DNA of 36,350 bases from a virus, in the UHGV virus genome UHGV-0207457. The stretch is one strand, 5' to 3'. Positions 370 through 16,146 of the stretch are shown piece by piece. The position numbers and the translations under genes were made by a program. The first letter of the stretch is position 1, and every line of letters begins with the position of its first letter. The notes under the pieces were generated by a model. That model saw only the letters and a list, made by a program, of their open reading frames with translations, had not been told where the DNA came from and made no database searches.

Positions 370-1149
370 TTACTCTGCGTCTACCATGTCACATGCAAAT
401 TGAGTGTGTTTATATTCAGAATCAAATTTTGGTTCAATTACTTCAAGACGCATGTCACCTTTTTTGCTTACCCAGATGTTATAAGTGTTAACACGTCCAA
501 TAGCATCCTGTTTGGATTTACCTTCCATTGCGTTTGGATTCTCTTTAGATGGCTTGAGACTTGATTTATAAACATCATACTTGTCGGAATACACAAAAGA
601 TACAGGAACATCGTCTACCATTTTGATCTTAAGTTTACCGCCGTTATTATCAAAAGTTTTGTTTCCGTAGAGTTTATCTTTTACAGCTTCTGTTTCCTCA
701 CCATCGATAACTTTCCATGTAAATTTTGTAGTACATGCGTAAATCGCGGTAACATTCAGTTTCTTTACTTCTTCCTGTTTCGGTTGTTCTTCTTCAATCT
801 TCGCAGAAGTCTCTGAATCGCTCTCTGACGCGGTTTCTTCTTTAGATAATACATTCATCAAGTTTTGGATTTGAGCGTTGTATACAGCCTCCAGTGGCTG
901 AATCTGCCCGATATTGATCATTGTATCACGAACAGTTTTATTCCAGTTGCGTTGCTCTTGTTTAAGAGACGGATCAATCTTAACAGCCTTAACATATACT
1001 TCATGAAGTTTAGAATCCAGTGCGGAGATTGACTCATTAGCACAAATAAACTTCTCTGATTTGGTTATAGCCTTAGTGCAATCAAAGGACGCAGCATCAG
1101 CACCGAAAGCAGTAGCAGAAAGCACGATAGCAGCGATAATGTTTTTCAT
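370..1149 (-). CDS. Secreted DUF1311 (LprI/YecT-like) domain protein with a Cys-bounded C-terminal domain; possible periplasmic lysozyme-inhibitor-like moron
   Basis: ATG at 1149 with AGAGGT Shine-Dalgarno; N-terminal signal peptide MKNIIAAIVLSATAFGADA; DUF1311-type motif C-x-K-A-x-T-x-x-E-x-x-IC ... QRNW; C-terminal ~120 aa bracketed by Cys (YAC...FACD), reminiscent of an MliC-like fold. Confidence 0.65.
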   Translation of the reverse strand: MKNIIAAIVLSATAFGADAASFDCTKAITKSEKFICANESISALDSKLHEVYVKAVKIDPSLKQEQRNWNKTVRDTMINIGQIQPLEAVYNAQIQNLMNVLSKEETASESDSETSAKIEEEQPKQEEVKKLNVTAIYACTTKFTWKVIDGEETEAVKDKLYGNKTFDNNGGKLKIKMVDDVPVSFVYSDKYDVYKSSLKPSKENPNAMEGKSKQDAIGRVNTYNIWVSKKGDMRLEVIEPKFDSEYKHTQFACDMVDAE

Positions 1150-1304
1150 TTTATACCTCTTTTGGTATGGACTGACTTTTAGATGCTTACTTTATTGATT
1201 TTTGATATTTTTTCAATTATTGGGATGAGATTTAGTAATTAAATTAAGAAATTAATGCTTGACAAATTAAAAAGGTACTGTTCCACGGATGAAATAAAGG
1301 GAGT

Positions 1305-1390
1305 TTTCGGCACCCCGGTATTTGATACGCGGGCGGGATTCTGAAACGTGATCACTTCACTTATGGCGCGGTCGCTACGCGACTATTAAC
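1305..1390. promoter_or_regulatory. GC-rich segment with partial dyad symmetry upstream of the Nu1-like gene; candidate cos/packaging recognition region
   Basis: ACGCGGGCGGGATTCTG and GGTCGCTACGCGAC lie in an AT-rich context about 120-190 bp upstream of the Nu1-like ORF; loosely resembles lambda cosN (GGGCGGCGACCT). Weak. Confidence 0.2.
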
Positions 1391-1507
1391 CCACTTCCTA
1401 GCCCTTACCATTACTGGATCTTTCCCTTCGTTAGAATGCGATTTAGGCGCTTAGATTGTGCGTAAAACCAATAAATAAAATTACGCAAATTTAATGGAGG
1501 ATAACCA

Positions 1508-2062
1508 ATGAAAGAAGAATTAACCCTTACAGAAATTTCCCGTTTATATGGTTATACATTGAATGGTGGCGGTAAGCGATGGTTAGAAAGGGGATTGCCA
1601 TTTAACACCAATACCCGCCGCGTGCCAGCCAAAGAAGGAACAGAATGGGTCTTGAAAAATATTATCAACCCGCTTAAACAAACTTCTATCAAAGAACAAA
1701 TCGATGTAGAGAAATTACGCCGTGAGCGTGCTTTGGCAGATGCAGCCGAACGAGAGAACCAGGAAAAAATGAATCTCCTGATTCCTGTCGGGTATGTAGA
1801 ACAGGAACTAGCGGAATATTGCGGAAAGGTGAAACAGACTATTTTGCAGATCGCCACAATCGACGCTTTAGAAATTCTCGAATCTGCCACTGATCAGAAA
1901 ACATTGAAGAATAAGCTAAGGGAGATCATCGAGCGTCGTTTAAATGAAGTAGGGGACTTGTTCGAAAATGCGGATTTGGGAGAAGACGAGGAAGAAGAAT
2001 TAGCATTAATCGATGAACCGGAACAAGAACCAGAAGAAGACGATGAATTTGATGTGTCTTAA
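1508..2062 (+). CDS. Nu1-like small terminase / DNA-binding packaging protein candidate (184 aa) with acidic C-terminal tail
   Basis: Strong RBS GGAGG; N-terminal HTH-like segment, GGGK motif and EKLRRE motif as in lambda Nu1; acidic tail EDEEEELALIDEPEQEPEEDDEFD. Lies ~6.2 kb from the large terminase, which is atypical. Confidence 0.45.
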   Translation: MKEELTLTEISRLYGYTLNGGGKRWLERGLPFNTNTRRVPAKEGTEWVLKNIINPLKQTSIKEQIDVEKLRRERALADAAERENQEKMNLLIPVGYVEQELAEYCGKVKQTILQIATIDALEILESATDQKTLKNKLREIIERRLNEVGDLFENADLGEDEEEELALIDEPEQEPEEDDEFDVS

Positions 2063-2162
2063 AATTTCTATACTAAATATATACGTGAAGGATGTTGAGC
2101 TGGTCAACGTCTACGGGGGAGAACATCCCCCGCTAACCTTTTTCTTATTTGAGGATTTACCT

Positions 2163-2264
2163 ATGGTTGAATTTTTGATTTATCTGGCTGTAGGATTAAC
2201 TATCGTATATTCACTGGCACATATTGGCATTTCTACTTTGTGTAACGCTTTCAAGTATCATTAA
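2163..2264 (+). CDS. Small hydrophobic membrane peptide (33 aa)
   Basis: ATG at 2163 after GAGGA; MVEFLIYLAVGLTIVYSLAHIGISTL is one predicted TM helix. Confidence 0.3.
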   Translation: MVEFLIYLAVGLTIVYSLAHIGISTLCNAFKYH

Positions 2265-2317
2265 TTAAATCGATGAATTGAACTATAGATGATGGTCGTT
2301 TTCAAAGAGGATTATCT

Positions 2318-2491
2318 ATGGATCTTTTTGTCTACTTTGCTACTCTGCTGTTTTTGACTATCGTCGCTGGCATTAAATTGATTTTTATATCGCTGGTGGT
2401 GTTTTTCAAATTTCTAATCGGTACGCCTTACGGCTGGGTATGCTTCTTTTTGTTTATTCTTTTTAGTTGCTGTAAAAAGGATACTAAATAA
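2318..2491 (+). CDS. Small membrane protein (57 aa, two hydrophobic segments)
   Basis: ATG at 2318 after AAGAGG; MDLFVYFATLLFLTIVAGIKLIFISLVVFF...; followed by tandem intrinsic terminators. Confidence 0.4.
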   Translation: MDLFVYFATLLFLTIVAGIKLIFISLVVFFKFLIGTPYGWVCFFLFILFSCCKKDTK

Positions 2492-2650
2492 TAGTGTAAT
2501 CTGCCTTTTCTCCTTATGGTTATTAACAGGGGATCTTCTTTGAGGATTCCCGATTAAAAGCCATAAAAACACACTTCCAGTACAGTGTTTTCATAGTCAG
2601 GATCTATACAACATAAAAACATAACAAGTATAGATTGAGTATTAATCCTC

Positions 2651-2676
2651 CCGCCCTTCGGGGCGGTTATTTTTCT
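2651..2676 (+). terminator. Intrinsic terminator (UUCG-loop hairpin + T-tract)
   Basis: CCGCCC-TTCG-GGGCGG followed by TTATTTTTC. Confidence 0.6.
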
Positions 2677-2746
2677 GGCTTTAAAGAATAATGTAGCATT
2701 ATGTTCATTATAACCTCATCTTTGTTGTGCAAACCTAAACTTACTA

Positions 2747-2771
2747 GGGACTCTTCGGAGTCCCTTTTTTT
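2747..2771 (+). terminator. Intrinsic terminator (UUCG-loop hairpin + T7 tract), abutting the stop of the convergent 80-aa gene
   Basis: GGGACTC-TTCG-GAGTCCC followed by TTTTTTT. Confidence 0.65.
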
Positions 2772-3012
2772 ATGCAACAATTCGAAGTGTAAGTTTCTTA
2801 TGTTGTGTAGGTTTAGTTTCATTTCGCCACTCAGGGAATACATGATCCATCATAACCGCATTAGTCTCATCAATCAGCTTTAAGGACTTTCTCAACGCCT
2901 TATTATCAGCTTTAAGTGTTTTAATCTCTGATTCCATCGCTACCATTCTTTCTTTCATTTTGGTAATTTCTAACATCAGATTACCCAGAAATTCTTTGTT
3001 TTGATTCATCAT
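2770..3012 (-). CDS. Small coiled-coil protein (80 aa)
   Basis: ATG ATG at 3012/3009 with GGGGTGA RBS; heptad-like MLEITKMKERMVAMESEIKTLKADNKALRKSLKL; last gene of the leftward operon. Confidence 0.5.
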   Translation of the reverse strand: MMNQNKEFLGNLMLEITKMKERMVAMESEIKTLKADNKALRKSLKLIDETNAVMMDHVFPEWRNETKPTQHKKLTLRIVA

Positions 3013-3027
3013 AGATTCACCCCTCTA

Positions 3028-4023
3028 TTAAGCTGCGTATGCGTAGGCGCTGTAGTTGGTGTCGTAGATAGCGTCATGCAGTGCCATCTGTGCTTCGCGG
3101 ATCTCGTCTTCGTTTACTTCAATCTCTTCTTGTTCTTCTTCGGTATCTTCCCAAGTGGTTTTGAATTTAGCCATAAAGTTATTGCGCAGGGATTCAAAGT
3201 TAGTAACAGGTGCGGATTCTTTTTCAACTTCAACCGGAACAACTACCGGAGCAACTTCTTGTTCTACTTCTGCAACAACACCCCAGCGATAGTTAAGGAG
3301 TTCTTCCAGTTCTTCATCAATGGATTTTTCTTCAACTGCTTCAACTTCAACCGCTGCTACTTCGAAAGTGGTTTCCTGTGCTGCCAGTTCAGCTTTCAGA
3401 GATGCGTTTTCAGCTTCCAGTTCAGCAATGCGTGCTTTCAGTGCTTCAACTTCGGAAGATTCAACCACTGCAACTTCTTCTTTAACTTCTTCAACTACTA
3501 CCGGAGAAACTTCTTTCTGTGCTTCTTTTTTGCAGAAGAAGGAGGAAGTAACCTGTAATGCGTGGTTGTAGAAGGAACCGCCTTTAGCGGTGTTAACAGT
3601 ACCAGAAACATCCTTTACAGTGGATTCGGTAGCAACAGTACGGAAGCGTTTTGCGACTTCCTGGGTCTCTACGCCGTATTCGTTACGTTTGCTCTTGTGA
3701 TGCATTACAGCACGGAAGCCGGAAGCAGTTTTAACAACAGCCAGATAGTAAGTTTCATCAGCTTTAACAGCACGAGCGAAGCAATAAACGGATTCACCTT
3801 CTACCAGTGTAGGTTTAACGTGACGTTTGTCGAAACGGTTAGTGATCTGCCATTCAGCACCGTCTTTGATGCCAGCATTCTGACGCATTTCGGTCAGAGT
3901 CTTACCGGATACTACTTCAAAGGATTTGTCTTGTTTGCTTGCTTTACCTTCCATGACGGTAATGTTCAGTTTGCCGTTGGATTTAATAAACAGGTTGAAG
4001 GTGATGCGCTTAGAATTTTTCAT
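3028..4023 (-). CDS. Hypothetical early protein (331 aa): N-terminal globular domain plus strongly acidic E/V/A-rich coiled-coil C-terminal half
   Basis: ATG at 4023 with GGAG RBS; the antisense + strand ORFs here are Phe/Asn/Cys-rich low-complexity, so the - strand is the coding one. Function not recognised. Confidence 0.75.
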   Translation of the reverse strand: MKNSKRITFNLFIKSNGKLNITVMEGKASKQDKSFEVVSGKTLTEMRQNAGIKDGAEWQITNRFDKRHVKPTLVEGESVYCFARAVKADETYYLAVVKTASGFRAVMHHKSKRNEYGVETQEVAKRFRTVATESTVKDVSGTVNTAKGGSFYNHALQVTSSFFCKKEAQKEVSPVVVEEVKEEVAVVESSEVEALKARIAELEAENASLKAELAAQETTFEVAAVEVEAVEEKSIDEELEELLNYRWGVVAEVEQEVAPVVVPVEVEKESAPVTNFESLRNNFMAKFKTTWEDTEEEQEEIEVNEDEIREAQMALHDAIYDTNYSAYAYAA

Positions 4024-4074
4024 TTATAAATACTCCTGAATGCTCTGTGTTAGTTTTAATGTTTCATGCTAAAA

Positions 4075-4110
4075 GCCTCCTTGCGCCAACAGGGAGGCTT
4101 TTTTATTTTT
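4075..4110 (+). terminator. Strong rho-independent terminator on + strand, located between two genes of the leftward (-) operon
   Basis: GCCTCC-N11-GGGAGGC hairpin followed by TTTTTTATTTTT; on the - strand the same hairpin is followed only by UUUUAGC. Confidence 0.5.
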
Positions 4111-4142
4111 AAAGCCATCATATAATTCTCAGTGAAAGTGGA

Positions 4143-4322
4143 TTAACAAACTTGAACGTTAATCTTTATCTGAATTTCGTATTTCTTCATTAGCTTATAG
4201 AATCCGCTTCTATCAATTCCTTCCTTCTTAAAGAAATTCTCGCCGCCTCGTTCAGTATCGCCATAAAAGCGTTTAGCAATATCAACAATCATTTCACGAG
4301 TAAACTTAACAGGTCTAGCCAT
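4143..4322 (-). CDS. Small DNA-binding protein with Fis-type C-terminal HTH (59 aa)
   Basis: ATG at 4322 with GAGGA RBS (the track start at 4337 is TTG); EGIDRSGFYKLMKKYEI matches the Fis/NtrC-type HTH motif; first gene of the leftward operon, next to the operator palindromes. Confidence 0.55.
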   Translation of the reverse strand: MARPVKFTREMIVDIAKRFYGDTERGGENFFKKEGIDRSGFYKLMKKYEIQIKINVQVC

Positions 4323-4421
4323 AAGTAGATTCCTCAAATGTGGATTAATAAGGACAATAAAAAGAGCTTTTCGCCCTCGATACTTCTATTTATAAAATGA
4401 TTTTCAGAAAACCCTGTAAAA

Positions 4422-4443
4422 CCACTGTATATCCGATCAGTGG
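4422..4443. promoter_or_regulatory. 22-bp palindromic operator candidate CCACTG-N10-CAGTGG
   Basis: Perfect 6-bp inverted arms with a 10-bp spacer, ~100 bp upstream of the leftward operon start. Confidence 0.45.
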
Positions 4444-4506
4444 GAGCACGAATTGCTAAAGAGAAGATTAATAATTAATCAATTCGTACATTATTCAATC
4501 GAAAAA

Positions 4507-4543
4507 GCACTGTATGTTTAACCAGTGCTGTATGTGTTAACAG
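4507..4543. promoter_or_regulatory. Second palindromic operator GCACTG-N10-CAGTGC overlapping a LexA-box-like CTGT-N8-ACAG
   Basis: GCACTGTATGTTTAACCAGTGC at 4507-4528; CTGTATGTGTTAACAG at 4528-4543 fits the E. coli SOS-box core CTGT-N8-ACAG. Confidence 0.4.
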
Positions 4544-4887
4544 TGAATCAGGGGATTTTCAGAAGTGAACAATCATTTCATGCATGTATTTATACACGAA
4601 AAAATCTTGCTTATCATCAATATGGGGATTGTTTCGAAAATTTCAACCCCTACCAACGAGAAAAAGTATAAAATAATCCTTGATAGTTGTCAATACACTT
4701 GACCTAAGCGAGAAATGACTATCAAAATTTTTGTGTGAAAATGGCGGATAACGATTATCAACCTTTATAACCTATTATAGCACGGCGACCTTTTGATCAT
4801 TCCTTTTAAATCATTCGGTTACCGCGATTTTTGGTGATTTTATGATTAAATAATATACAAGAATTTTCTATCAAAATTTTTGATGAA

Positions 4888-5010
4888 AACCCTACACTAC
4901 AAACCTACACTTTAAAGGGATTGGCCTACACTACACTAGCCAGTAAACCTACACTATAACACCCTCAAACCTACGCTATGAAACCTACACACCTACACTA
5001 ACCCTACACT
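4888..5010. repeat. Iteron array: at least 8 direct copies of (A)ACCTACAC(T) with roughly helical phasing
   Basis: Copies start at about 4891, 4904, 4925, 4948, 4970 (variant CCTACGC), 4984, 4993, 5003; spacings 9-23 bp; sits in a 1.2 kb ORF-free region. Confidence 0.7.
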
Positions 5011-5349
5011 TCAATCTCATAAGTGTATGATCTTGAAAGACATTTAACCTCACAGACCATAGAATATAAAATTCGAACTAACGTTCTCCTTTTTGCTCGT
5101 TTTCTCTCACTACGTTCAAGAAAGATCTCGCAAAAAGAATACGGCGTAGCCGTGCGCGAAGCGCCCATCAACACCTTCTAAGACCTGCAAGCAGGATTCG
5201 AAAGGGATTGGATAGTTCGCTTCGCTCACGTTCACGCCTACGGCGTTCACTCACTTTTGAAAGGATTTTCTTAGAAAGGGATTTAATACTAGTTACTAAC
5301 TGATTCTAGTAAACGAACGAAGTGAGTAACAATCACTTTCTAGAAAGGT

Positions 5350-5390
5350 ATTGGTATCCCTTCGGGATTGCAACCTTCGGTTGCTAAATT
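5350..5390 (+). ncRNA. Tandem UUCG-tetraloop hairpins (ATCCC-TTCG-GGAT; GCAACC-TTCG-GTTGC) ending an ORF-free structured segment; candidate small RNA 3' end or processing site
   Basis: Two adjacent perfect stems with TTCG loops followed by an A/T-rich tract; no ORF of 60 aa or more anywhere in 4338-5583. Confidence 0.25.
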
Positions 5391-5583
5391 GCTTCCTGAT
5401 TATTATTTCTCCAAAAGAAAGATTCTTATATTCTAAAGATACTTCTTCGTTTTGATGATGATTTAATCAAAACTATGAAGGAGGGCTATGCCCGACTGAA
5501 TACAATCACCTTTCATAATAACAAGAATTTTCTCTTTATAAATAATATTAGATTGATTCACTTTCTTTTAGAGGATTTCCACT

Positions 5584-6051
5584 ATGAACCATAAAATGAC
5601 TACCACTACTCCTTTCATCCTGTTAGGTTTTGATGCTGATAGCTTCCACAATGACAAGTTAATGAAGATGTTCCGTGAACGTGGTTATAACATCCTTTTC
5701 AATTCCGATGAATCCCATTTCTCTAGTGCATGGTATGCGTTTTGCCGTAATAAGAAGCCGACCATTGTTGTTAACGTCTTCACCGATGAAGATCGCTTAA
5801 AGTACCAGAATCTACCAGCAATTATTGTTCGTGATGATCTGCCGTTTGAAGTCCGTTCCGGTGACATTGATCTGGGTAGCTTCGTTACTGTCTATGAACT
5901 GGATGAAGCAATGTTTAACTACGGCAAAGAAACCGCTCAGGAAGCCCCAGAACAAGATGAAGAAGATGAGGAAGACGAAGACTACGCTCCAATCTGTTTT
6001 TCTTCTCAGAATGGCTTCTACGGTTACGATGAAGGCTTAGATATGCTGTAA
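5584..6051 (+). CDS. Hypothetical protein (155 aa) with acidic C-terminal tail
   Basis: ATG at 5584 after AGAGGA; tail QEAPEQDEEDEEDEDYAPICF; function not recognised. Confidence 0.65.
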   Translation: MNHKMTTTTPFILLGFDADSFHNDKLMKMFRERGYNILFNSDESHFSSAWYAFCRNKKPTIVVNVFTDEDRLKYQNLPAIIVRDDLPFEVRSGDIDLGSFVTVYELDEAMFNYGKETAQEAPEQDEEDEEDEDYAPICFSSQNGFYGYDEGLDML

Positions 6052-6073
6052 GTTAGGTCAACCCTTTGGCGTC

Positions 6074-6114
6074 TTGTCAAGGTGTATTGACAAAAATTTC
6101 TGACTTTTTATGAT
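6074..6114 (+). promoter_or_regulatory. Sigma70-like promoter (TTGACA-16-TATGAT) whose -35 lies inside a palindrome TTGTCAA-N6-TTGACAA
   Basis: TTGTCAAggtgtaTTGACAA at 6074-6093; TATGAT at 6109-6114; a further TTGACA at 6124; upstream of the small basic ORF and the antirepressor gene. Confidence 0.45.
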
Positions 6115-6171
6115 TATCGCACTTGACAACTTTGATTATATTTGACCTAGATTTGTAAAGAGGATGTAAGC

Positions 6172-6351
6172 ATGAAAACCTTTACCCGTGAACGTGAACC
6201 AGGGGTGATCGAAACCCGCCGTCGTCGTTATGTTAAGGGCTTTGGTTGGGCTACCGAAACCGTGGATGTGGAATATAAAGACGAATCCAAAGCACCGAAA
6301 CCATCACCTTTGCAAATGGCTTTACGCGGATTGTGTGCTAACAACAAATAA
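6172..6351 (+). CDS. Small basic protein (59 aa)
   Basis: ATG at 6172 after AAGAGGATG; MKTFTREREPGVIETRRRRYVKGFGW...; below the ORF-track length cutoff. Confidence 0.4.
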   Translation: MKTFTREREPGVIETRRRRYVKGFGWATETVDVEYKDESKAPKPSPLQMALRGLCANNK

Positions 6352-6442
6352 GAAATAGCTCTTATAAATAAAATTGTTCCGGTGGTGATGCCGGAACAGG
6401 GAGGATTAAATCGCAAAACCGTTAATTAAGGGGAATTTTACT

Positions 6443-7258
6443 ATGAATACTGTTACTACTATGAATACTGCTGTTAAAACTGCTTCCGTGTCTCTGGTTG
6501 TTGATAACACCAAACCACTGACCATGTCTTCTCGTCAGATCGCTGAATTTACCGGAAAAGAACACAAAAACGTTAAAGCTGATATTGTTAAGATGTTTAA
6601 AGCACTTGAATTAGATGCGCTGAAATCTCAGCGTATCTATTTTGACCAATATGGACGCGAACAAACCGAATATCACCTTGACGAAGAAATGACGCTGACT
6701 CTTGTTACTGGTTACGATGTTAAACGTCGAATGATTGTTATTCAGGAATGGAAACGACTGAAAGAAGAAAATGAAAAACTGCGTCAGGAACGGTTAGCCG
6801 TTAACCCGTATGCAGACTTTGAAGAAACCGACTGGATCGAACTGGCGTTAAAGAAAACTCGCGAGAACAAGCAACTGATTACTCTACATCATCGCAAATC
6901 CGTAGATAGCCATTCAATGACGCGTTTGTTAGGTGCTAAAAAGGGCGCTACGAAGGTTAAAGAAGCACTGACGGCCTTACGTACTGCCGGATACATTGAG
7001 CGCGTCTATGATGAAAATAACAAGCCGTGTGGGTATGTTGCTAATGATTCCGCGATACCGTTTTGCAGCATGAACGCTCACTATCAACTTTCTTTCACTG
7101 TTGATGTGCTTCCGGTGCTGGTTGAATTGGGTGTTCTTGAAGAAGAACAAAAAGCAGCTTTGACACTGCCTAAACCGAATAACACGATCATGATTCAGAA
7201 TAAAGCGACTATCATGATTCGTCAGAATGTTGGATCGCTAGAACACTTCGGACTGTAA
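6443..7258 (+). CDS. Rha-family phage regulatory protein / antirepressor-like (271 aa)
   Basis: N-terminal TMSSRQIAEFTGKEHKNVKADIVKM matches the Phage_pRha motif; separate C-terminal domain; followed by an intrinsic terminator. Confidence 0.75.
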   Translation: MNTVTTMNTAVKTASVSLVVDNTKPLTMSSRQIAEFTGKEHKNVKADIVKMFKALELDALKSQRIYFDQYGREQTEYHLDEEMTLTLVTGYDVKRRMIVIQEWKRLKEENEKLRQERLAVNPYADFEETDWIELALKKTRENKQLITLHHRKSVDSHSMTRLLGAKKGATKVKEALTALRTAGYIERVYDENNKPCGYVANDSAIPFCSMNAHYQLSFTVDVLPVLVELGVLEEEQKAALTLPKPNNTIMIQNKATIMIRQNVGSLEHFGL

Positions 7259-7266
7259 TAATTTTT

Positions 7267-7292
7267 GCCCCTGAATTTCAGGGGCTTTTTTG
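7267..7292 (+). terminator. Intrinsic terminator after the antirepressor gene
   Basis: GCCCCTGAA-T-TTCAGGGGC followed by TTTTTT. Confidence 0.65.
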
Positions 7293-7304
7293 TATCTGTA
7301 GGTA

Positions 7305-7331
7305 TAAAAAAAGCCAACCCCGAAGGATTGG
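7305..7331 (-). terminator. Intrinsic terminator for the leftward 7341-8206 operon
   Basis: On the - strand: GGCCAATCC-TTCG-GGGTTGGC followed by TTTTTTT. Confidence 0.6.
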
Positions 7332-7340
7332 CCTAGAGAA

Positions 7341-7571
7341 TCAAATTCCTGTTGCTTCTACCATTTCACCGTCAACCTGAACAAAGAATTTCAAATCAAC
7401 TTTATGTAGGGATTTGTATAGCTGGGCTATAGATAAGCCATGCTCATTTAATACCCGTTCTTTGTTCTCTTTACCTTTCGGTGCTTGATAGTATGCTTTT
7501 ACAATCGCTGCCAGTTGTTCACGATTAAAACGGGCAGGGCGACCGCGAGTAGCTTTAGTAGTCATAGTCAT
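7341..7571 (-). CDS. Small HTH DNA-binding protein (76 aa)
   Basis: ATG at 7571 preceded by GGAGAAA (the track start at 7598 is GTG); TRGRPARFNREQL and HGLSIAQLYKSLHK look like an HTH. Confidence 0.5.
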   Translation of the reverse strand: MTMTTKATRGRPARFNREQLAAIVKAYYQAPKGKENKERVLNEHGLSIAQLYKSLHKVDLKFFVQVDGEMVEATGI

Positions 7572-7600
7572 TTTCTCCAAATTAAAGTGAATGTTCACCT

Positions 7601-8206
7601 TTATTTAGAGGACTTACATTTTATCGGAAAAAGTTCTCCATCGTCAACCGACATAAAGAACTCTGCCTTAATCCCGTACTTCTTCAACCGTGAATAATAT
7701 GTACCCCGACTAATATCAACCTTGCGCAGCACTTCGAAGAACTCTTTAGGATTCCTGTAATAGTGGCTATATCGCACGTTAGCGAGTTCTACAAACAATT
7801 CCCTTGAATCACCATAGCCTTTCTTGAAAGCCACGTTACGATAGCGTGTAATGGCATGATTCAATCTCTTCTGTTTAAGCACTTCCCTGATCGGCTTCCA
7901 CTGCAACCGATAGATTGGACCGTCATCCACTCGATAATAACGCTTGATATCAAAATCAAACCATTCACGGACTCGCTGAAACTCTGTCTGTGATGTGCGA
8001 TGCTTCTTAAAGAAGTTATGAATATCGGTATACCCATGATCGCGATACAACTCGATTAAAATCTGTTTCGCTTCCTCGCGACTAAAGCCGGATGTTGTGT
8101 AATCAGTCTTCTTGTGATGGTGCTTAACTGGCAAACGATATTCATGATCGGTACAACAAGAAAAGGCTAATTTTAATTCATCTCTTTGTTGCTGATTAAT
8201 TAGCAT
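7601..8206 (-). CDS. Hypothetical basic protein (201 aa) with Fis-type C-terminal HTH
   Basis: ATG at 8206; VDISRGTYYSRLKKYGIK matches the Fis/NtrC-type HTH; transcribed divergently from the large terminase. Confidence 0.6.
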   Translation of the reverse strand: MLINQQQRDELKLAFSCCTDHEYRLPVKHHHKKTDYTTSGFSREEAKQILIELYRDHGYTDIHNFFKKHRTSQTEFQRVREWFDFDIKRYYRVDDGPIYRLQWKPIREVLKQKRLNHAITRYRNVAFKKGYGDSRELFVELANVRYSHYYRNPKEFFEVLRKVDISRGTYYSRLKKYGIKAEFFMSVDDGELFPIKCKSSK

Positions 8207-8293
8207 ACAACCCCCTTAAATCTTAATACCCGTATTTATCAAAATATCAACAATTTAATAAATACCTTCATATTTCGTAATGAGGGTAATTAC

Positions 8294-10198
8294 ATGAAAC
8301 TGATTTCTAATAAGGCAAAATTAAAAAAGATTCTCAGAAATATCACTGCTGCAATTCGCCCACCTAAAGCAATGAAACCTAGCGAGTGGGTAGAGGCTAA
8401 CGTAGTGGCTACCGATGGTGTTAAAGCCGGATCTCTAATTAAATTGCATCCCTTCCAACGTGGAATGATGGACGCGATCACCGAAGACCGTAGAAAAATT
8501 GTGCTAAAGTGCTCGGCACAGTTGGGTAAAACTCTTGTGCTAAACGGTATTATCTTTCACAGGATCGCCAGTAACCCTACTAATATCGGTGTTTTGCAAG
8601 CGAACGTTCGAGAATTGAACTCATGGATTGCGGGTAAGGTGAAGCCAGTATTAGAGGCAACCCCAGAATTAAAGGCGATGATCACCGACAAATCAGATCG
8701 CAATGCCGTTAACAACTCATCGATTATTCAGCTTCGTAACGGATCATTCATGTATTTCATGTCGCTGAACAGTCCATCACACTTGCGCGGTAAGACACTG
8801 CCTTTGATTATTCTGGATGAAGTTGATGCGGCTGATGAGTCAGACGAAGGGAACCCGATCCAGCTAGCGGAACAACGCGCAACCACTTTCGGTGATGATG
8901 CAAGGATCGTAATTGCTTCTACTCCAACTTCGCGGGATGGGGCGATAAACCAACAATGGGAACTCTCGGATAAAAGAAAATACCACGTCGTTTGCCAGCA
9001 TTGCGGACACAAACACGTAATGGAATGGAGTAGAGTATTCTTTGATTGGCATGTAATCAATGGTAAATCACTGCCGAATCCAGACACAGCCGTTTACCGT
9101 TGCCCGTCATGTGAAACTGATTGGTCAGAACCAGATCGCCTCCGTGCTGTTGCTCAGGGAGAATGGGTCGCCACCGAACCAAATGCGGAAGTAATCGGTT
9201 TTCATGCTAACCGCCTTATGTCTCCGTTTAGTTCTATCCGTGCGTGTGTGGTGGACTTTGCTGATAGCTACGCGAATATGTCACTGGCAACGTTCTATAA
9301 TGTGGTGCTCGGTGAAACCTTCGATGATCTTAACGAAGACCGCACAGCCGACGAACTGGAAACGCTGAAAACTGACATTAGCTTAGATAATATTCCTGAT
9401 GATGTTCTGGCTCTGGTAGGTGGAGTTGACCAGCAAAAAGACCGTCTGGAATCTACCTTGCTGGGTATCTCTCGTAAGGGGATATGCGTAGTTGATCACC
9501 GATCATTCTATGATGTGAACTGCGAACGCCACGAATCGCCAGCATATGACCAGCTTTATAACTTCCTGAAAGCGAAATTCTATACCCGATCCGGTGAACG
9601 AATCCCGATGCTATCTGCTTTCGTGGACTCATCGAACGGACGAGCTACAAACGTGATCTACCGTTTTTGCACTAGGTGGCAAAACCTATGCGCCATTAAA
9701 GGCGCAAGTAATGCTGATGCTCCAATCCTTCCGGCTAAGGACACAAGAACGGGTGGTTTTACCCTTAAAATTCTGGGCGTAAACAACCTTAAAACGATGA
9801 TCCGTGAAATGATTAACCGGAACTTGAGAGATGGCGATCCTCACACTGTCTTCCAGATTGGCGACGTTCCTGATGACTATTGCGAGCAATTGCTTTCTGA
9901 ACAGTTGAAACGGCAGGGTAATACCACACGTTGGGTAAAAGTTGGTCAGCAACGAAACGAGGCGCTCGACTGCCTGGCTTATTCCTATGCTGCTTCTCGC
10001 CATGTACTCAATAAAATGTCATGGGAAAAACTCGAAGCCATCAAAGATAGTTTGAACCGTGAACCAGAAGAATCCGTAGAAGCTCCTAAATCGCAATCTG
10101 ACGAGAAAATAGAAGAAACTAAGCCAATCACACGACCACAACGTCAAAACATCGCCAGACGCCCAAATAGAGGCCGTGGCTGGGTAACATCGTTCTAA
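8294..10198 (+). CDS. Terminase large subunit, lambda gpA-like (634 aa)
   Basis: Walker A-like SAQLGKT, Walker B ILDEVD, zinc-finger-like CQHCGH...CPSC; size and position ahead of the portal. Confidence 0.85.
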   Translation: MKLISNKAKLKKILRNITAAIRPPKAMKPSEWVEANVVATDGVKAGSLIKLHPFQRGMMDAITEDRRKIVLKCSAQLGKTLVLNGIIFHRIASNPTNIGVLQANVRELNSWIAGKVKPVLEATPELKAMITDKSDRNAVNNSSIIQLRNGSFMYFMSLNSPSHLRGKTLPLIILDEVDAADESDEGNPIQLAEQRATTFGDDARIVIASTPTSRDGAINQQWELSDKRKYHVVCQHCGHKHVMEWSRVFFDWHVINGKSLPNPDTAVYRCPSCETDWSEPDRLRAVAQGEWVATEPNAEVIGFHANRLMSPFSSIRACVVDFADSYANMSLATFYNVVLGETFDDLNEDRTADELETLKTDISLDNIPDDVLALVGGVDQQKDRLESTLLGISRKGICVVDHRSFYDVNCERHESPAYDQLYNFLKAKFYTRSGERIPMLSAFVDSSNGRATNVIYRFCTRWQNLCAIKGASNADAPILPAKDTRTGGFTLKILGVNNLKTMIREMINRNLRDGDPHTVFQIGDVPDDYCEQLLSEQLKRQGNTTRWVKVGQQRNEALDCLAYSYAASRHVLNKMSWEKLEAIKDSLNREPEESVEAPKSQSDEKIEETKPITRPQRQNIARRPNRGRGWVTSF

Positions 10199-10270
10199 TA
10201 ACTCGCCGTCCTTCGGGGCGGCTTACTCCTAAATATTGTTAATCCAATAACAATTAAATAAGGGGTGATT

Positions 10271-10765
10271 ATGAGTTTAGAACTAATTCCCTTAGTAATT
10301 CGTAAAGGCGAAAAAATCACGCTGGCGAATGAAGAGGGTGTAACAATTCAGGTAGGAAATAGTAAAGGTATCATTTATCAGGTTGATGATACTCCGGCTA
10401 ATCACGAGATTAAAACCTTAGATTTTGCCGAGGGTAAATATACCATCGTAACCACTTTGGAAGAAGAACTGGTATCAATGCAGGAATTAACTGTATTGCC
10501 AGTATTCGCCAAACAATCCAAAAAAGAACATCTGCGGGAGACTATCGCCAAAATCGAGCAAGTTATTTTCGCCCGTTTATCTGGGGACGAAGCCGCATTA
10601 TCTCAAATGACCGTGAAAGGGAATACTTTCGCCTATGAGTCATTAGGTGTTCTCCAGCAATTAAAGACTGATTATGAACGTCAACTGTCTAAATTAATTC
10701 AAGCCGAACGACGTAAACAGGGAATTAGCCCGATTAAAAATATCAAATTACGTCTTACGCGATAA
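10271..10765 (+). CDS. Head morphogenesis / head-tail joining protein (164 aa), in the position of lambda gpW
   Basis: ATG at 10271 with AGGGG RBS (track start 10265 is GTG); between terminase and portal. Confidence 0.55.
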   Translation: MSLELIPLVIRKGEKITLANEEGVTIQVGNSKGIIYQVDDTPANHEIKTLDFAEGKYTIVTTLEEELVSMQELTVLPVFAKQSKKEHLRETIAKIEQVIFARLSGDEAALSQMTVKGNTFAYESLGVLQQLKTDYERQLSKLIQAERRKQGISPIKNIKLRLTR

Positions 10766-10775
10766 GGGGTAAATC

Positions 10776-12287
10776 ATGTTTAATCTTTTTCGACGCAATA
10801 AGGCGGTAGAAACTCCAGTTAAAACTAATCACCGCCAGCAACAACAAAAAATCTTTATCGACAAACAAGTAGAAAAATTCCAGAAAGATTTGTCTAAGCG
10901 TTCTTTGGGCTTAGTTGGTGATCGCATTGATGGATCGCTTCAACAAGATACTATCACAGGAACCTTCAATAAGGCTCTCAAATCGAATGGTAAGCGCCTT
11001 TATGACCAGGGTCGTACTCTGGCCTTAAACACTTCCGTAGGCAGTCGCTACACGCAATACATCACCGATATGGTGGTAGGTACTGGCCTAGATCCGAAGC
11101 CGTCAGTTGTTAAATCAAATGGAAAACTTGATAGCGCACTGAATAAGCAGATCGAGAATGCTTTCTGGAAGTGGGCGCAGAATGCTAAACGCTTCTCCCG
11201 CAATGGTCGTTTTAACTTCCGTGAACTGCTGGTAATGGCTGAACGTGAGCGCGTTATGGGTGGTGAGTGCTTCATCGTTTTAACCAAAGAAAACAATGAG
11301 TTAAATGTTTCTATCCTGTCTGCTGATAAGTGCGACTGGTCGCTAAACCGTGAAGTAAGCAAAGACCGTGCGATATATCAAGGTGTGGAGTATGACGTAG
11401 AGACGATGAAGCCCGTAGCATACTGGTTTCGTAAAATCAACCTACTGACTCAGACTTACACAGGTGATAACTATCGCGTAGATGCTTCGCAAGTATGCCA
11501 TTATTATCAACCACTTGCGGCTGAATCTCTGCGTGGTGTGACTGACTTCCTGCCAGTGATTAAGGATATCGCACATCAAGACGCATTCCGCGAAGCTGTA
11601 CTGGTCCAGAAACGAATTTCAGCTAGTAGCATGGCGTTCATCGAGCGTCCGAAAGATTCTGGTGACGATTTTGATACTGGTGAAGATGATGAACAATATC
11701 AAGCGCCGGAAGTTATTCACGATTTCGCGCCGGGTACTATTCAGGAATTGCCGGAAGGGGCAACGATCAAGAGTATTCAATCCACGCAAAGCGGCGATGA
11801 TTTCAATTCATTTAACGCTGGTATGTTCACTAGCATAGCAATGGGTCTTGGCGTGTTCAATCAGGGCTTAACTGGCGATACTAGCCAAATAAATTACAGC
11901 GCTGCACGCTACGGCGAATTACTTCAAAGAACGCGCGTTAAAGCACTGCAAAACAAATTAATTGAAACAGTGGTATTGCCAATTTTCGAAGCGTATCTGC
12001 GTCATTATTCCGCGCGTGGTATTGTTCCGATTCGTATTACTGCAATTCCGCATATTATCGATAACACTACTATTATTCGTCCGCGTTTTGAATCCGTCGA
12101 TCCATTTAAAGACGTAAGCGCCGAGATTGCTTTAATTGATAACGGACTTAAATCACGTACTGCCGTTATATTGGAACGTGGTGATGATCCTGAAAAAGTA
12201 TTCTCAGAGATTCAAGCCGAAAAAAGCGCACTAAATATTATCGTTGATGGCGAGGGTGAAGAAAAAAATTCCCCAGCCGATCCCTAA
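10776..12287 (+). CDS. Portal protein (503 aa), lambda gpB-like
   Basis: Size, acidic C-terminus and position between terminase and the protease-capsid gene; RBS GGGG. Confidence 0.75.
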   Translation: MFNLFRRNKAVETPVKTNHRQQQQKIFIDKQVEKFQKDLSKRSLGLVGDRIDGSLQQDTITGTFNKALKSNGKRLYDQGRTLALNTSVGSRYTQYITDMVVGTGLDPKPSVVKSNGKLDSALNKQIENAFWKWAQNAKRFSRNGRFNFRELLVMAERERVMGGECFIVLTKENNELNVSILSADKCDWSLNREVSKDRAIYQGVEYDVETMKPVAYWFRKINLLTQTYTGDNYRVDASQVCHYYQPLAAESLRGVTDFLPVIKDIAHQDAFREAVLVQKRISASSMAFIERPKDSGDDFDTGEDDEQYQAPEVIHDFAPGTIQELPEGATIKSIQSTQSGDDFNSFNAGMFTSIAMGLGVFNQGLTGDTSQINYSAARYGELLQRTRVKALQNKLIETVVLPIFEAYLRHYSARGIVPIRITAIPHIIDNTTIIRPRFESVDPFKDVSAEIALIDNGLKSRTAVILERGDDPEKVFSEIQAEKSALNIIVDGEGEEKNSPADP

Positions 12288-12333
12288 TAACCAACGGGGG
12301 GCGCAATGCCCCCAATTAATTAAAGGTGATTAA

Positions 12334-14340
12334 ATGCTTAAATTTCGCCGCGAACTTAACGGTTACGGTGGAGTTATTAACGAAGGGCATAACGATCAAT
12401 ACGAATTTGAAATTGCTTTCTCCAGTGAACAGCCTTATCAGCGCCAATTCTGGGATGAGCAAAATCAAGAAATGGTGGTATTAGATGAAATTCTGGTACA
12501 TACACCGGAAGCGGTTGATCTGTCTCGTCTGAATAATAACGCTCCGTTGCTGTTTAATCATAATTTCGATAATCATTTAGGTGTCGTTTGTAACGCTCGA
12601 ATCGATGCGGATAAAGTAGGCCGTGCGACCGTTAGATTCTCTAAGCATGGCACTTTGGCTAATGATATTCGTAATAAAGTCATTGAAGGTACGATGGAAA
12701 AAATTTCTGTCGGTTATGACATTAAAGAATATCACATCGATTATGCCAAAGGACAATTGATTGTTACTAAGTTTGTTCCTTTCGAATTAAGTTTTGTTAC
12801 GGTCCCGGCGGACGATTCGGTCGGTTTAAATCGCTCTCTAAATACTATCACAGTTAATTTGGAGGCTAAACGCGATATGACTAAAGAACAAATCGAAGAA
12901 ATCAAAGAAGAACAAGAACCCGCTCAGGTTGAAGAAACTCCGGTAGAAGAAAATAAAGAATCGGAAGTTGAAGAAACTCAAGAGCGCCAAGTTGAAGAGA
13001 ATAAAGAAGATGAAAATCTCGAAGACGGAAAAGACGCTGAACATCCTGAAAGTGTTGATGATGATAGTTCAACTGTTCGGGAAACAGAAGAAGTAAAAGA
13101 AGAACGTGAAGCCGTTCCGGTTGAAGAAGAAAAAACCGAGGAAGTGGCTGAACGTTCCGAAGAAGACGAATTAGAAATCCGCGAGATCGCGCGGGAACTA
13201 AATATTGACGACGAAGAATTAAAACGCGCATTGGCAATTAAAGACATGACGCCGGAAGCATTCCGCACTAAGGCACTAAATAACATTACCAATGCTCAAC
13301 GTATTAACGAACAAATTAATAAGGAACAAATCATGGAAAAAACTTTCGATCTTAATAACGTAATCCGCTCCCTGGTAGATGGCGACGTGCTCGGCGCTAA
13401 CGAAGCTGAATATTCCGCTATGGCTGCTGGTGCTGCAATGCAGCGTGGTCGTGCTGCTCGCGGTGGCTCTGTATTCGTTCCGGCTGCTGCTCTGCGTGCT
13501 GCTTCCGAAGGTAACACCAAAGCTACTCTGACCGCTGTTACTGATGAAAAACTGCTGACTGAATCCTACATCGAAATGCTGTTGCCTCAGAGTGTTTTAG
13601 GCCGCCTCGGTGTAACCGTTCTGTCTGGCCTGACTTCCCCGATCGCTGTTCCGAAAATGACCGCTTCCAGCGTCGAAGCCTTTGGTTTTGTTGACGAAAA
13701 TGGGGCTGCCCCCGAGTCACATGCGGAATTTTCGAACGTGAAAATGGCTCCTAAGACGTTCGCTGGTGGGAATCCGATCAGCAGAGCTAGCATAAAGCAA
13801 GTTCCCGGCATCGCTACCCTGATCACTGATCACATTAACAAATCTGTTCGGATCAAACTGGAACAACTGATTCTGTCTGACAAAGACAACGAGCGCGGTC
13901 CGGCTGGCCTGGTTAAGCAACTGGTAGACGCGGGTCGCGTTACTAAGAAAGCCGCTTTCTCTTACAAAGACTTCCTGAAAGAAATTGCAGCACTGACCGA
14001 CGCTGGCGTTCCTGCTCAGGCGATCAAGTTTGCGATGAGCGGTGCAACTGCTGCTGAACTGGAATCTACCCTGAAAGATAACGGCGTTTCCGGTTATATC
14101 ATCGAAAACGGCAAACTGGCTGGTTACGAAGTAGTTACTTCTGGTGTTATCCCGGCAGACCACATCGTTCTGGGCGCGTTTGACGGTATCACCATTGGTG
14201 AGTGGGGCGGTCTTGAACTGGATATGGACGACACTACCTACCGCGCACAGTCTGCTATCGTTCCGCGAATCTGGGTAGACCTGGATTATGTTGTTACTCA
14301 GCCGGAAGCTCTGAAAGTTCTTCACATCTCCGCTGAATGA
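12334..14340 (+). CDS. Fused prohead protease - scaffold-like acidic linker - HK97-fold major capsid protein (668 aa); ends in TGA
   Basis: N-terminal ~170 aa carry prohead-protease-like motifs (LLFNHNFDNHLG, ISVGY, ELSFVTVPAD); residues ~180-300 are Glu-rich; C-terminal ~340 aa is capsid-like. Confidence 0.85.
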   Translation: MLKFRRELNGYGGVINEGHNDQYEFEIAFSSEQPYQRQFWDEQNQEMVVLDEILVHTPEAVDLSRLNNNAPLLFNHNFDNHLGVVCNARIDADKVGRATVRFSKHGTLANDIRNKVIEGTMEKISVGYDIKEYHIDYAKGQLIVTKFVPFELSFVTVPADDSVGLNRSLNTITVNLEAKRDMTKEQIEEIKEEQEPAQVEETPVEENKESEVEETQERQVEENKEDENLEDGKDAEHPESVDDDSSTVRETEEVKEEREAVPVEEEKTEEVAERSEEDELEIREIARELNIDDEELKRALAIKDMTPEAFRTKALNNITNAQRINEQINKEQIMEKTFDLNNVIRSLVDGDVLGANEAEYSAMAAGAAMQRGRAARGGSVFVPAAALRAASEGNTKATLTAVTDEKLLTESYIEMLLPQSVLGRLGVTVLSGLTSPIAVPKMTASSVEAFGFVDENGAAPESHAEFSNVKMAPKTFAGGNPISRASIKQVPGIATLITDHINKSVRIKLEQLILSDKDNERGPAGLVKQLVDAGRVTKKAAFSYKDFLKEIAALTDAGVPAQAIKFAMSGATAAELESTLKDNGVSGYIIENGKLAGYEVVTSGVIPADHIVLGAFDGITIGEWGGLELDMDDTTYRAQSAIVPRIWVDLDYVVTQPEALKVLHISAE

Positions 14341-14469
14341 ACTCCTGTAGAACCATCTGAACCTTCCCCCGATTCGGGGGAAGAAAATCTGATTCCTAAA
14401 CCGGAAGAAGATTCCCAGACGGTTACGGCGAAAGCCACAGCTAAAAAACAGCGTAAAACTAAAGAATAA
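14341..14469 (+). other. In-frame 42-codon extension after the capsid gene TGA; candidate programmed readthrough tail
   Basis: No stop from 14341 to TAA at 14467-14469; encodes TPVEPSEPSPDSGEENLIPKPEEDSQTVTAKATAKKQRKTKE; 20-nt core 14422-14441 is identical to 20337-20356. Confidence 0.5.
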
Positions 14470-14474
14470 TAATT

Positions 14475-14502
14475 AGCCCTGCCTAACGGTGGGGCTTTTT
14501 TG
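14475..14502 (+). terminator. Intrinsic terminator after the capsid extension
   Basis: AGCCCTGCCTAACGGTGGGGCT followed by TTTTTT; near-identical copy at 20390-20418. Confidence 0.65.
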
Positions 14503-14531
14503 TATGTAAATACTCCATAAAGGGGGTAACT

Positions 14532-14822
14532 ATGTTCAAATTATCAGAATCACAATTAAATCGAATGTTTAAAAGTGCTCCTGTATTTGTGGTGGAAGGT
14601 GGTAAATCAATTCGTGCTTATCATGAAATTACTACTACCGACGAATCAGGGGTAATGACAGAAACAGAATTTCTATTCTGTCGTGAGGGAGACTTAAAGC
14701 AAGGTGATATTGTCACAGTAGAAAACCAGCGTTTCAAAGTTCAATACGTTAAGCGTAATGGTGATAATACAACTGATTGCTTTATTACTCTGGCAGGGGG
14801 TACACATGCTCGCTATCGTTAA
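14532..14822 (+). CDS. Head-tail connector/adaptor protein (96 aa)
   Basis: Strong RBS AGGGGG; position directly after the capsid gene. Confidence 0.55.
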   Translation: MFKLSESQLNRMFKSAPVFVVEGGKSIRAYHEITTTDESGVMTETEFLFCREGDLKQGDIVTVENQRFKVQYVKRNGDNTTDCFITLAGGTHARYR

Positions 14823-15228: not shown

Positions 15229-15237
15229 GGGGTAATA

Positions 15238-16071: not shown

Positions 16072-16100
16072 GATTGCTTACCTAAATAAAACATGACGCG

Positions 16101-16134: not shown

Positions 16135-16146
16135 TGAGGTGATTAG

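Follow-up and report, generated by a model that had tools for sequence, protein, structure and literature searches.

What is the function of a noncoding stretch, crowded with small hairpins, that lies between two divergent operons of a prophage? The question is raised by positions 5040-5400 of UHGV-0207457, a viral genome of 36,350 nucleotides that was analysed over its whole length (the window) and that represents a temperate siphovirus-like prophage of Escherichia coli and Shigella. The initial annotation described the segment as GC-richer, free of open reading frames (ORF) and rich in hairpins, and considered it either a structured noncoding RNA (ncRNA) or a protein-binding hub. The feature is real, non-random and evolutionarily maintained. 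It most likely represents regulatory DNA close to the origin of a prophage whose lineage is uncharacterised. The complete form of this reading, in which the segment is not a gene but noncoding control DNA next to an origin, equipped with insulator and promoter cassettes, is given an even chance of being correct. Sequence comparison favours inverted-repeat DNA over RNA, and a discrete ncRNA is not supported and seems improbable.

Modular anatomy of the intergenic region

Twelve intergenic regions were aligned first, and the comparison was then widened to 40 distinct sequences, drawn from E. coli genomes and from IMG/VR. Across 38 distinct relatives the region is a mosaic of three independently shuffled modules, designated A (4890-5250), B (5247-5354) and C (5355-5480). 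The elements of module A and the hairpins of the whole region are the following:

4890-5014, plus strand: iteron array of eight direct CCTACRCT-like 8-mers, starting at 4891, 4904, 4925, 4948, 4970, 4984, 4992 and 5003
5005-5027: core of the last iteron (TACACTT) and its inverted copy (AAGTGTA), 9 bp apart
5015-5140: class-specific AT-rich spacer, 34% GC, with GATC at 5029 and 5124 and an imperfect inverted repeat (5089-5107 and 5119-5137)
5141-5246: imperfect palindrome of 106 bp, 57.5% GC, with arms at 5143-5163 and 5218-5238 and its centre at 5184-5195
5141-5153: hairpin ACGGC-GTA-GCCGT
5154-5164: hairpin GCGC-GAA-GCGC
5184-5195: hairpin CCTG-CAAG-CAGG, at the centre of the palindrome
5234-5246: hairpin ACGCC-TAC-GGCGT (ACGCC-GTA-GGCGT on the minus strand)
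5356-5368: hairpin ATCCC-TTC-GGGAT
5370-5384: hairpin GCAACC-TTC-GGTTGC
5483-5493: hairpin GGGC-TAT-GCCC, just outside 5040-5400

The iterons are separated by 13, 21, 23, 22, 14, 8 and 11 bp and are phased at about 11 or 22 bp. Seven exact copies are found in the array and nine in the window, against 1.3 expected, a count reached in none of 100 shuffles. The array lies just to the left of 5040-5400, yet it is part of the same exchangeable block. Module A occurs in four unrelated versions at the same place, with the repeats CCTACACT (class 1, the class of the window), TTTTGCCCCTGAA (class 2), ATCCCCG and TCCCCAAGATTCCAC. The AT-rich spacer is swapped wholesale together with the iteron class, and class-2 relatives also carry an inverted copy of their own iteron (GGGGCAAAAA) just to the right of the array. 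The right end of the module is a large imperfect palindrome of mini-hairpins in classes 1, 2 and 4, and one strong hairpin in class 3. In each of the 37 distinct sequences in which the iteron block persists, the palindrome type follows the iteron class (14/14, 18/18, 4/4 and 1/1). The left operator type, the right repeat module and the proximal hairpin type assort freely with module A. The class-2 iteron sequence (TTTTGCCCCTGAA) of other family members is also present in the window, as the left arm of the terminator that follows the Rha gene (7262-7290, TTTTTGCCCCTGAA-TTTCAGGGGCTTTTTT).

The multiple stable hairpins announced by the initial annotation are indeed exceptional. Seven perfect GC-rich mini-hairpins, placed at 5141-5493, were counted in 496 bp, whereas mononucleotide shuffles contain a mean of 0.40 and none of 200 reached seven; no other 500-bp bin of the 36-kb window is as rich in such hairpins. 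The excess holds in all four module classes (7, 7, 4 and 4 hairpins against about 0.5 expected). The stems that had been listed exist, but the tetraloops assigned to them (UUCG, GAAG) were misparsed: with the exception of the central hairpin, the loops have 3 nucleotides closed by a C-G pair (GTA, GAA, TAC, TTC, TTC and TAT). The expected conservation in related phages was found at the level of structure, with other stems and variable loops at the same positions. Six of the seven hairpins lack a U-tract on both strands. The only one followed by a T-run is that of 5153-5141 on the minus strand (ATTCTTTTTG, to 5131), and this combination is restricted to class 1.

The arms of the palindrome are 81% complementary. 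The left arm forms two abutting hairpins on the plus strand, with GTA and GAA loops (5141-5153 and 5154-5164), whereas the elements of the right arm, GCGAAGC (5219-5225) and ACGCC-GTA-GGCGT (5234-5246), are read on the minus strand. GCGTAGC and GCGAAGC are located at 5144-5162 of the plus strand. The GCGAAGC 7-mer is found six times in the whole window, some of these by chance. Folded as single-stranded DNA with DNA parameters, the two strands of the palindrome reach -23.7 and -24.5 kcal/mol (z -3.3 and -3.0).

The segment is GC-richer only in relation to its flanks, since its 42.1% GC equals the window mean of 42.0%. The GC is concentrated in two islands, 5141-5246 (57.5%) and 5355-5385 (51.6%), set among AT-rich stretches of 24-34% GC. 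No 13-mer-like motif was recognised in 5015-5140 (34% GC) or 5386-5475 (24% GC). The claim that no ORF of at least 60 aa exists in 5040-5400 is correct, the longest overlapping ones having 56 and 52 aa.

The 11-mer AAAGGGATTGG was likewise correctly reported to occur twice, at 4914-4924 (inside the iteron array) and 5201-5211, with variants, of which the copy at 5344-5354 has one mismatch. These three matches with at most one mismatch are equalled in 5 of 100 shuffles, so that the recurrence alone is only modestly unlikely. The shorter consensus RAAGGNATT has nine matches against 4.1 expected, four of them in 4914-5352 and all on the plus strand. In its relaxed form, RAAGG(N)ATT, five or six sites share the plus orientation (4914, 5201, 5259, 5275 and 5344 among them), and equivalents are found at matching positions in all four classes, always on the plus strand. 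Oriented short repeats and inverted repeats beside iterons whose class co-varies with a neighbouring protein fit the notion of a protein-binding hub.

The 331-aa protein and the probable origin

The segment sits in a 1246-bp ORF-free gap (4338-5583). On one side of it the 64-aa, 331-aa and 80-aa genes form a leftward operon, and on the other the 155-aa, 59-aa and Rha genes form a rightward one. All relatives examined retain such a gap, 1.25-1.46 kb long and bordered by the same genes. The leftward operon encodes the following protein:

3028-4023, minus strand: 331-aa ORFan protein with a variable N-terminal domain, a coiled coil and an acidic tail

In every class-1 (CCTACACT) locus the N-terminal region of about 180 aa is 95-100% identical, whatever the neighbouring modules and even where the 64-aa, 155-aa or Rha gene belongs to a different type. 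The identity falls to about 28-30% in loci of classes 2 and 3 and is confined to the coiled coil, the N-terminal domain being unrecognisable. The 64-aa, 155-aa and Rha proteins show no co-variation with the iteron class. Because the N-terminal domain follows the iteron class and the other neighbours do not, we infer that the 331-aa protein binds the iterons and regard it as a candidate replication initiator. Its sequence matched no family or known initiator, and its predicted fold, a low-confidence model, matched nothing. No helicase, primase, loader or known initiator was recognised among the scanned proteins of the window (all non-structural ORF and the main large ones), which leaves the ORFan operon beside the iterons as the only candidate.

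The expression of this operon may be tied to DNA damage. Three LexA-box-like sites of the form CTGTAT-N7-CAG (4425-4440, 4510-4525 and 4528-4543; 0.19 expected), one of them a perfect CTGT-N8-ACAG, precede the 64-aa/331-aa operon and follow a strong promoter-like site that points leftward (4693-4665, TTGACA-17-TATACT). This position suggests SOS-induced expression, and a control of this type would suit a protein with a lytic role, for example in replication initiation, better than it would suit a repressor. In some relatives the LexA-box block is replaced by two copies of AGCACGAATTGCTAAAGCG, presumably the operators of another repressor. TTGACA/TTGTCAA and TTGACCTAR motifs, which look like shared operator sites, surround the same leftward promoter-like site (4680-4710) and recur at 6074-6155 around another strong promoter-like site (6087-6114, 11/12) ahead of the 59-aa and Rha genes.

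According to the proposed mechanism, SOS induction would lead the 331-aa protein to bind the phased iterons at 4890-5014. Subsequently, the AT-rich spacer (5015-5140), a candidate DNA-unwinding region, would melt, and the GC-rich palindrome (5141-5246) would become single-stranded. Its arms would fold, and each strand would thereby carry its own set of very stable C-GNA-G mini-hairpins. These mini-hairpins may act as single-strand initiation (ssi) or primosome entry signals, in the manner of ssiA and ssiB in the inverted repeat of the RSF1010 oriV or of G4-type priming sites, or may at the minimum mark the structural limit of the opened DNA. Positions 5015-5250 would then represent the right half, devoted to unwinding and priming, of the prophage's probable replication-origin module. 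Since no helicase, loader or primase is recognisable in the phage, the host enzymes would be used. What has been observed is the anatomy with its statistics, the co-variation of the modules and the homology to RB49; iteron binding by the 331-aa protein, origin function, priming and insulation are deduced from these.

Several observations weigh against the origin reading. A DnaA box and the IHF consensus are absent from 5000-5600; the only DnaA-like 9-mer, with one mismatch, is at 4339-4347, distant from the iterons, and the IHF consensus is missing from the whole of 4300-5600. Such sites, found in many theta origins, are not universal, and the lambda origin has none. The absolute linkage of iterons and palindrome could simply mean that the block offers too little homology for internal crossing-over. 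A large palindrome is missing from class 3, where a single strong hairpin stands instead, and the GNA loops are common but not universal, the loops of L013 being TTTA/TAAA. In the window itself the minus strand carries a terminator-like hairpin with a T-run (5153-5131) and folds clearly better as RNA, the minus strand of 5030-5410 reaching -119 kcal/mol (z -4.9) and the plus strand a z of only -2.3. Finally, the part of module C that resembles a phage early-promoter cassette lacks a good sigma-70 match and has a degenerate -10 equivalent.

If the block of iterons and palindrome is an origin, it would provide a new initiator family with four exchangeable DNA-specificity classes, and would show, in a compact and testable form, hairpins serving a double-stranded DNA phage as priming signals. 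The main interest of the locus resides in this ORFan initiator candidate with four specificity classes and in a cassette held in common with T4-like phages. A bolder proposal joins both. It envisages an undescribed type of temperate-phage origin that combines an ORFan iteron-binder, LexA-box-like control, a class-specific palindrome whose C-GNA-G hairpins serve the host primase or primosome, and hairpin/AT-rich cassettes traded with Krischvirus. This proposal is speculative and, at present, improbable; if true, origin and regulatory parts would be a shared currency of temperate and lytic coliphages.

Downstream cassettes and competing explanations

The elements to the right of the palindrome are the following:

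5247-5354, plus strand: module B, a repeat module of 32% GC with TCACTTT...GAAAGGATT units at 5249-5267, 5271-5283 and 5331-5354
5288-5310: CTAG-flanked inverted repeat of module B
5335-5346: palindrome CTTTCTAGAAAG of module B
5356-5384: stem-loop pair of module C, one base apart (ATCCC-TTC-GGGAT and GCAACC-TTC-GGTTGC), with no U-tract on either strand
5396-5476, plus strand: AT-rich stretch of module C, 24% GC, with an inverted repeat (5442-5456 and 5466-5480)
5477-5501, plus strand: invariant AAGGAGG, variable GC hairpin and invariant CCGACTGAAT
5518-5547, plus strand: promoter-like site of the 155-aa gene, ATAACA-17-AATAAT (TAGACA-16-AATAAT in relatives), predicted from the consensus

The GAAAGGATT units of module B resemble the ribosome-binding sites of the phage itself (GAGGATTnnCnATG) but are not followed by a start codon. 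The module exists in 'short' and 'long' versions, in which whole repeat units were gained or lost, and these assort freely with the iteron class. Such a same-orientation array of TCACTTT...GAAAGGATT units and CTAG repeats probably binds a class-independent protein. TrpR-like operators were considered for the CTAG repeats and discarded due to a misfit in spacing.

The stem-loop pair of module C is kept in most relatives, and in L013, L030 and L047 different hairpins (TGC-TTC-GCA and GACGCTC-(T)AGG-GAGCGTC) take its place. On its minus strand the pair reads CCGAAGG twice. The initial annotation took UUCG hairpins for recurrent terminators of the phage. This holds for three C(UUCG)G sites with U-tracts elsewhere (about 2648-2675, 7300-7330 on the minus strand and 10205-10225), but not for the pair at 5356-5384, where the register gives 3-nucleotide loops and no U-tract follows. 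The AT-rich stretch at 5396-5476 is 78-79% identical, over 81-83 bp, to intergenic DNA of RB49-type Krischvirus between gene 3 and an ORFan (E 1e-7 in a search of 2.3 Gb, 1e-11 pairwise). Matches were found at 133 places in 59 records (RB49 and 58 others), that is, two or three per genome. At the same relative place RB49 has two abutting triloop hairpins, GTCGC-TTT-GCGAC followed by GTGCC-GTA-GGCAC, and the Krischvirus region has an inverted repeat in the position of a promoter spacer. No sigma-70 hexamer pair scoring at least 9/12 is present on the plus strand of 5396-5480, the -10 equivalent being a degenerate CTATGA or TCATGA. The protein encoded next to the RB49 locus, RB49p130, was sought as a counterpart and has no homologue in the window.

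The hairpin of the AAGGAGG unit is GGGC-TAT-GCCC in the window and GGC-GAA-GCC or GGGC-TTTA-GCCC in relatives; class-2 and class-4 relatives carry a second AAGGAGG-hairpin unit in place of the left end of the palindrome. Within the origin reading, module C would be a stem-loop and AT-rich cassette of the PeSL type, common to the prophage and RB49-like phages, that insulates the origin from the rightward early operon, which would start at its own promoter near 5518-5547. If the neighbouring block is an origin, the homology to RB49 would be direct evidence of small regulatory cassettes moving between temperate prophages and virulent T4-like phages. The two groups share further DNA: pieces of the prophage within 769-19662 (e.g., 370-1149 and the end of 16147-19731) are 80-99% identical to Krischvirus of the RB49 type, and the matching Krischvirus stretch comprises the distal long-tail-fibre gene, about ten hypothetical genes and the holin gene. 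These matches point to recent exchange between the temperate prophage and virulent T4-like phages.

The rival that survives best, unlikely as it is, extends the insulator idea to the whole region. The segment would be a pure transcription-insulator and regulatory array of stacked PeSL-type terminator/promoter cassettes, some of them now geneless. Their only tasks would be to isolate and drive the divergent early operons and to link modules for recombination, and they would take no part in replication. This rival gains from the homology of 5396-5476 to intergenic DNA of the RB49 type, at whose start a pair of abutting triloop hairpins is likewise found, and from the capacity of PeSL stem-loops to attenuate transcription and to mediate module shuffling, as reported in PMC2839356. 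The doubled AGGAGG-hairpin-GACTG unit of class-2 and class-4 relatives, the free recombination of the flanking modules and the likeness of the repeats to the phage's ribosome-binding sites agree with it as well. However, a U-tract is missing on both strands from all but one of the seven hairpins, no strong sigma-70 match stands beside the hairpins, and the divergent operons are transcribed away from the region, which makes the need for terminators between them doubtful. In addition, the palindrome travels with the iteron class and the 331-aa domain and not with the flanking operons. Were the region an insulator array only, the finding would be ordinary.

A second rival, still less probable, is a structured ncRNA of the minus strand, running leftward from about 5296 or 5507 to the hairpin and T-run at 5153-5131 (about 160-370 nucleotides). 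It would have co-evolved with the origin module, e.g., as a replication primer, a copy-control RNA or an immunity RNA. Apart from the asymmetric folding of 5030-5410, it can call on promoter-like sites at 5332-5303 and 5542-5515, on a terminator-like site at 5153-5141, and on the palindrome, where the minus strand exceeds the plus strand in stability in each of the four classes. The minus strand also has more G-U pairs, 26 against 13. The minus strand of the segment is G+U-rich, however, so that its folding is favoured by composition alone, and in the relatives L003 and L013 the z values of the two strands are similar (-3.9/-2.9 and -3.5/-3.4). The promoter-like sites, the T-run and the long-range helices are not kept in other module variants; the helix 5247-5255/5320-5328, for instance, is lost in the 'long' variants. 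Rfam 15 gave no match at E <= 1 in positions 4000-6500 of the window and one chance-level match, outside the region, in L003, L010, L012 and L013, while ARAGORN found no tRNA or tmRNA in the region. The known relatives are limited to E. coli and Shigella, which leaves none beyond them for covariation.

In the comparison of folds among relatives, which the initial annotation had proposed, the local hairpins recur as other hairpins, and the long-range helices and the strand asymmetry do not recur. With structure that is strand-symmetric in relatives, signals that are not conserved and sub-blocks that are swapped or vary in repeat number, its suggestion of a structured ncRNA, a processed small RNA or a riboregulatory leader finds no support and is considered improbable. 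A small protein was also considered and dismissed, as no ORF is common to the module classes; in relatives, indels interrupt the 39-aa ORF (5475-5594) and the mini-ORF ATG-CCC-GAC-TGA, or the start codon is absent. A CsrA sponge was rejected because the invariant site AAGGTATT contains no GGA.

Very unlikely is a DNA-packaging site, with the iterons as a cosB-like array, the 331-aa protein as a binder of the small-terminase kind and the palindrome as a cosN-like cut site. The large terminase is of the lambda gpA type, with no small-subunit gene directly upstream, and the layout of the 331-aa protein (DNA-binding domain, coiled coil, acidic tail) is that of a small terminase. Moreover, among lambdoid phages cosB is exchanged together with the N-terminal domain of the small subunit, which counts for this explanation. 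Nevertheless, a separate gene resembling a terminase small subunit exists at 1508-2062 (phrog_57, E 1.6e-10), with a GC-rich segment upstream that could be cos. The cut site of a conserved large terminase should not vary with the iteron class, yet the palindrome does, and the 331-aa gene belongs to an early operon behind LexA-box-like sites. The GC-rich patch in question (1300-1385) contains CGCGGGCGGGATTC and a hairpin GTCGC-TAC-GCGAC, and could be the cos site of a phage with a lambda-type terminase.

The weakest rival, a long riboregulatory 5' leader of the 155-aa gene that would run rightward from a promoter near 5037-5072 with the hairpins as attenuators or processing sites, is highly improbable. 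In its favour are plus-strand promoter-like sites (5037-5065 and 5044-5072), perfect Shine-Dalgarno-like AAGGAGG and GAAAGG repeats of the plus strand, and an alternative pairing of 5343-5366 with 5491-5514. Against it, these promoter-like sites belong to the class-specific block and are without a class-2 counterpart, a 41-nucleotide indel and module swaps fall inside the putative leader, and a 500-nucleotide leader is not needed, as the 155-aa gene has its own conserved promoter-like site (5518-5547), followed by a conserved leader of about 35 nucleotides and a ribosome-binding site.

The prophage lineage and known systems

Positions 4300-5700 were found in 58 of 5426 complete E. coli genomes (about 1%), with 80-99.6% identity and always in the chromosome; one copy of the prophage interrupts ycdX. 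The recognisable structural genes encode a large terminase of the lambda type, a portal, a head protein and tail proteins, and a T4 gp37-like fibre tip, an endolysin and a serine integrase are also recognisable, whereas the early region is composed of ORFans. Among cultured phages, even the nearest has a head protein of only 43% identity, and megablast against phages and plasmids returned no close DNA relative of the region. A protein-based scan of one genome per species found no member of the family beyond E. coli and Shigella, a DNA-motif scan gave only chance matches in unrelated taxa, and IMG/VR contained the same E. coli prophage family and nothing wider. One member, the 30-kb metagenomic contig IMGVR_UViG_3300045988_095018 (L014), ends at about window position 5276, which could be an assembly break at the repeats and not a genome end.

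Elsewhere in the window, the 64-aa protein (4143-4337, minus strand), an 85-aa protein (7341-7598, minus strand) and the C-terminal third of a 201-aa protein (7601-8206, minus strand) are paralogues with 29-35% identity and a common N-terminal RGRPxxFxRE motif. They matched no known family and are probably small DNA-binding regulators. ARAGORN reported a 91-nucleotide tRNA-Glu at 14993-15083 of the minus strand (anticodon TTC at position 40), inside the plus-strand ORF 14758-15228; considering its unusual length and position, it may be a false call.

Four known systems resemble parts of the region. The PeSL cassettes of RB49/phi1-type phages consist of a stem-loop, an AT-rich stretch and an early promoter, and mediate shuffling in hyperplastic, ORFan-filled regions (PMC2839356). 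Module C shares with them the 78-79% identity of 5396-5476 to the region upstream of the ORFan RB49p130, the start with two abutting GC stem-loops of 3-nucleotide loops, the AT-rich stretch with an inverted repeat at the place of the -35/-10 spacer, and the location in a highly shuffled region full of ORFans. Unlike those phages, the carrier is temperate, a siphovirus-like prophage; its sigma-70 hexamers match poorly, with an invariant ATGAAGGAGG in place of the -10 equivalent, and the downstream gene begins 100 bp further on, behind a second promoter-like site, instead of a Shine-Dalgarno sequence and an ORFan start directly. The matching RB49 locus is not among the PeSL listed in the accessible text of PMC2839356.

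Mini-hairpins of the GCGNAGC/GCGAAGC type mark single-stranded DNA priming sites of phages (primase sites, G4-like phages) and resist coating by SSB (PMC13037366). As in the complementary-strand origins of G4, St-1 and alpha3, short GC hairpins with GCGAAGC or GCGNAGC-type sequences are clustered in the palindrome, although here the 7-mers also arise by chance elsewhere in the window, where GCGAAGC occurs six times.

In ori-lambda, four iterons bound by the O protein are joined to an AT-rich sequence of 38 bp (PMC3349717). The prophage likewise has phased iterons adjoining an AT-rich stretch and an initiator candidate of about 300 aa with its specificity in the N-terminal domain, and, as in lambda-type phages, its relatives swap the iterons and the binding domain as a unit. 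The lambda origin lies within the initiator gene, whereas the origin candidate occupies a long intergenic gap; homology to O is lacking, as is a P-like loader, and the operon stands behind LexA-box-like sites instead of depending on CI/PR.

In the RSF1010 oriV the initiator binds the iterons, and its binding together with unwinding exposes for priming two 40-nucleotide hairpin-forming signals, ssiA and ssiB, which are inverted repeats on opposite strands; ssiA holds a CCGAAGG mini-hairpin, and DnaG-type signals can replace the ssi signals (PMC8567376, PMC13037366). RSF1010 is an IncQ plasmid and has three and a half iterons of 20 bp, whereas the chromosomal prophage has eight repeats of 8 bp and, among its scanned proteins, no homologue of the RepA helicase or the RepB' primase. 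On the other hand, the order of direct repeats (RepC-bound in RSF1010), AT-rich stretch and large inverted repeat is the same. The two arms form hairpins on opposite strands beside the iterons, with both strands folding equally as DNA in the prophage, and the triloops are of the GNA type closed by C-G. The CCGAAGG 7-mer of ssiA is also the one repeated on the minus strand of 5356-5384. This order of elements, which is that of the RSF1010 oriV, together with the mini-hairpins of G4-like priming sites and the iteron and AT-rich core of the lambda origin, leads us to propose a role in origin unwinding and priming for 5015-5250.

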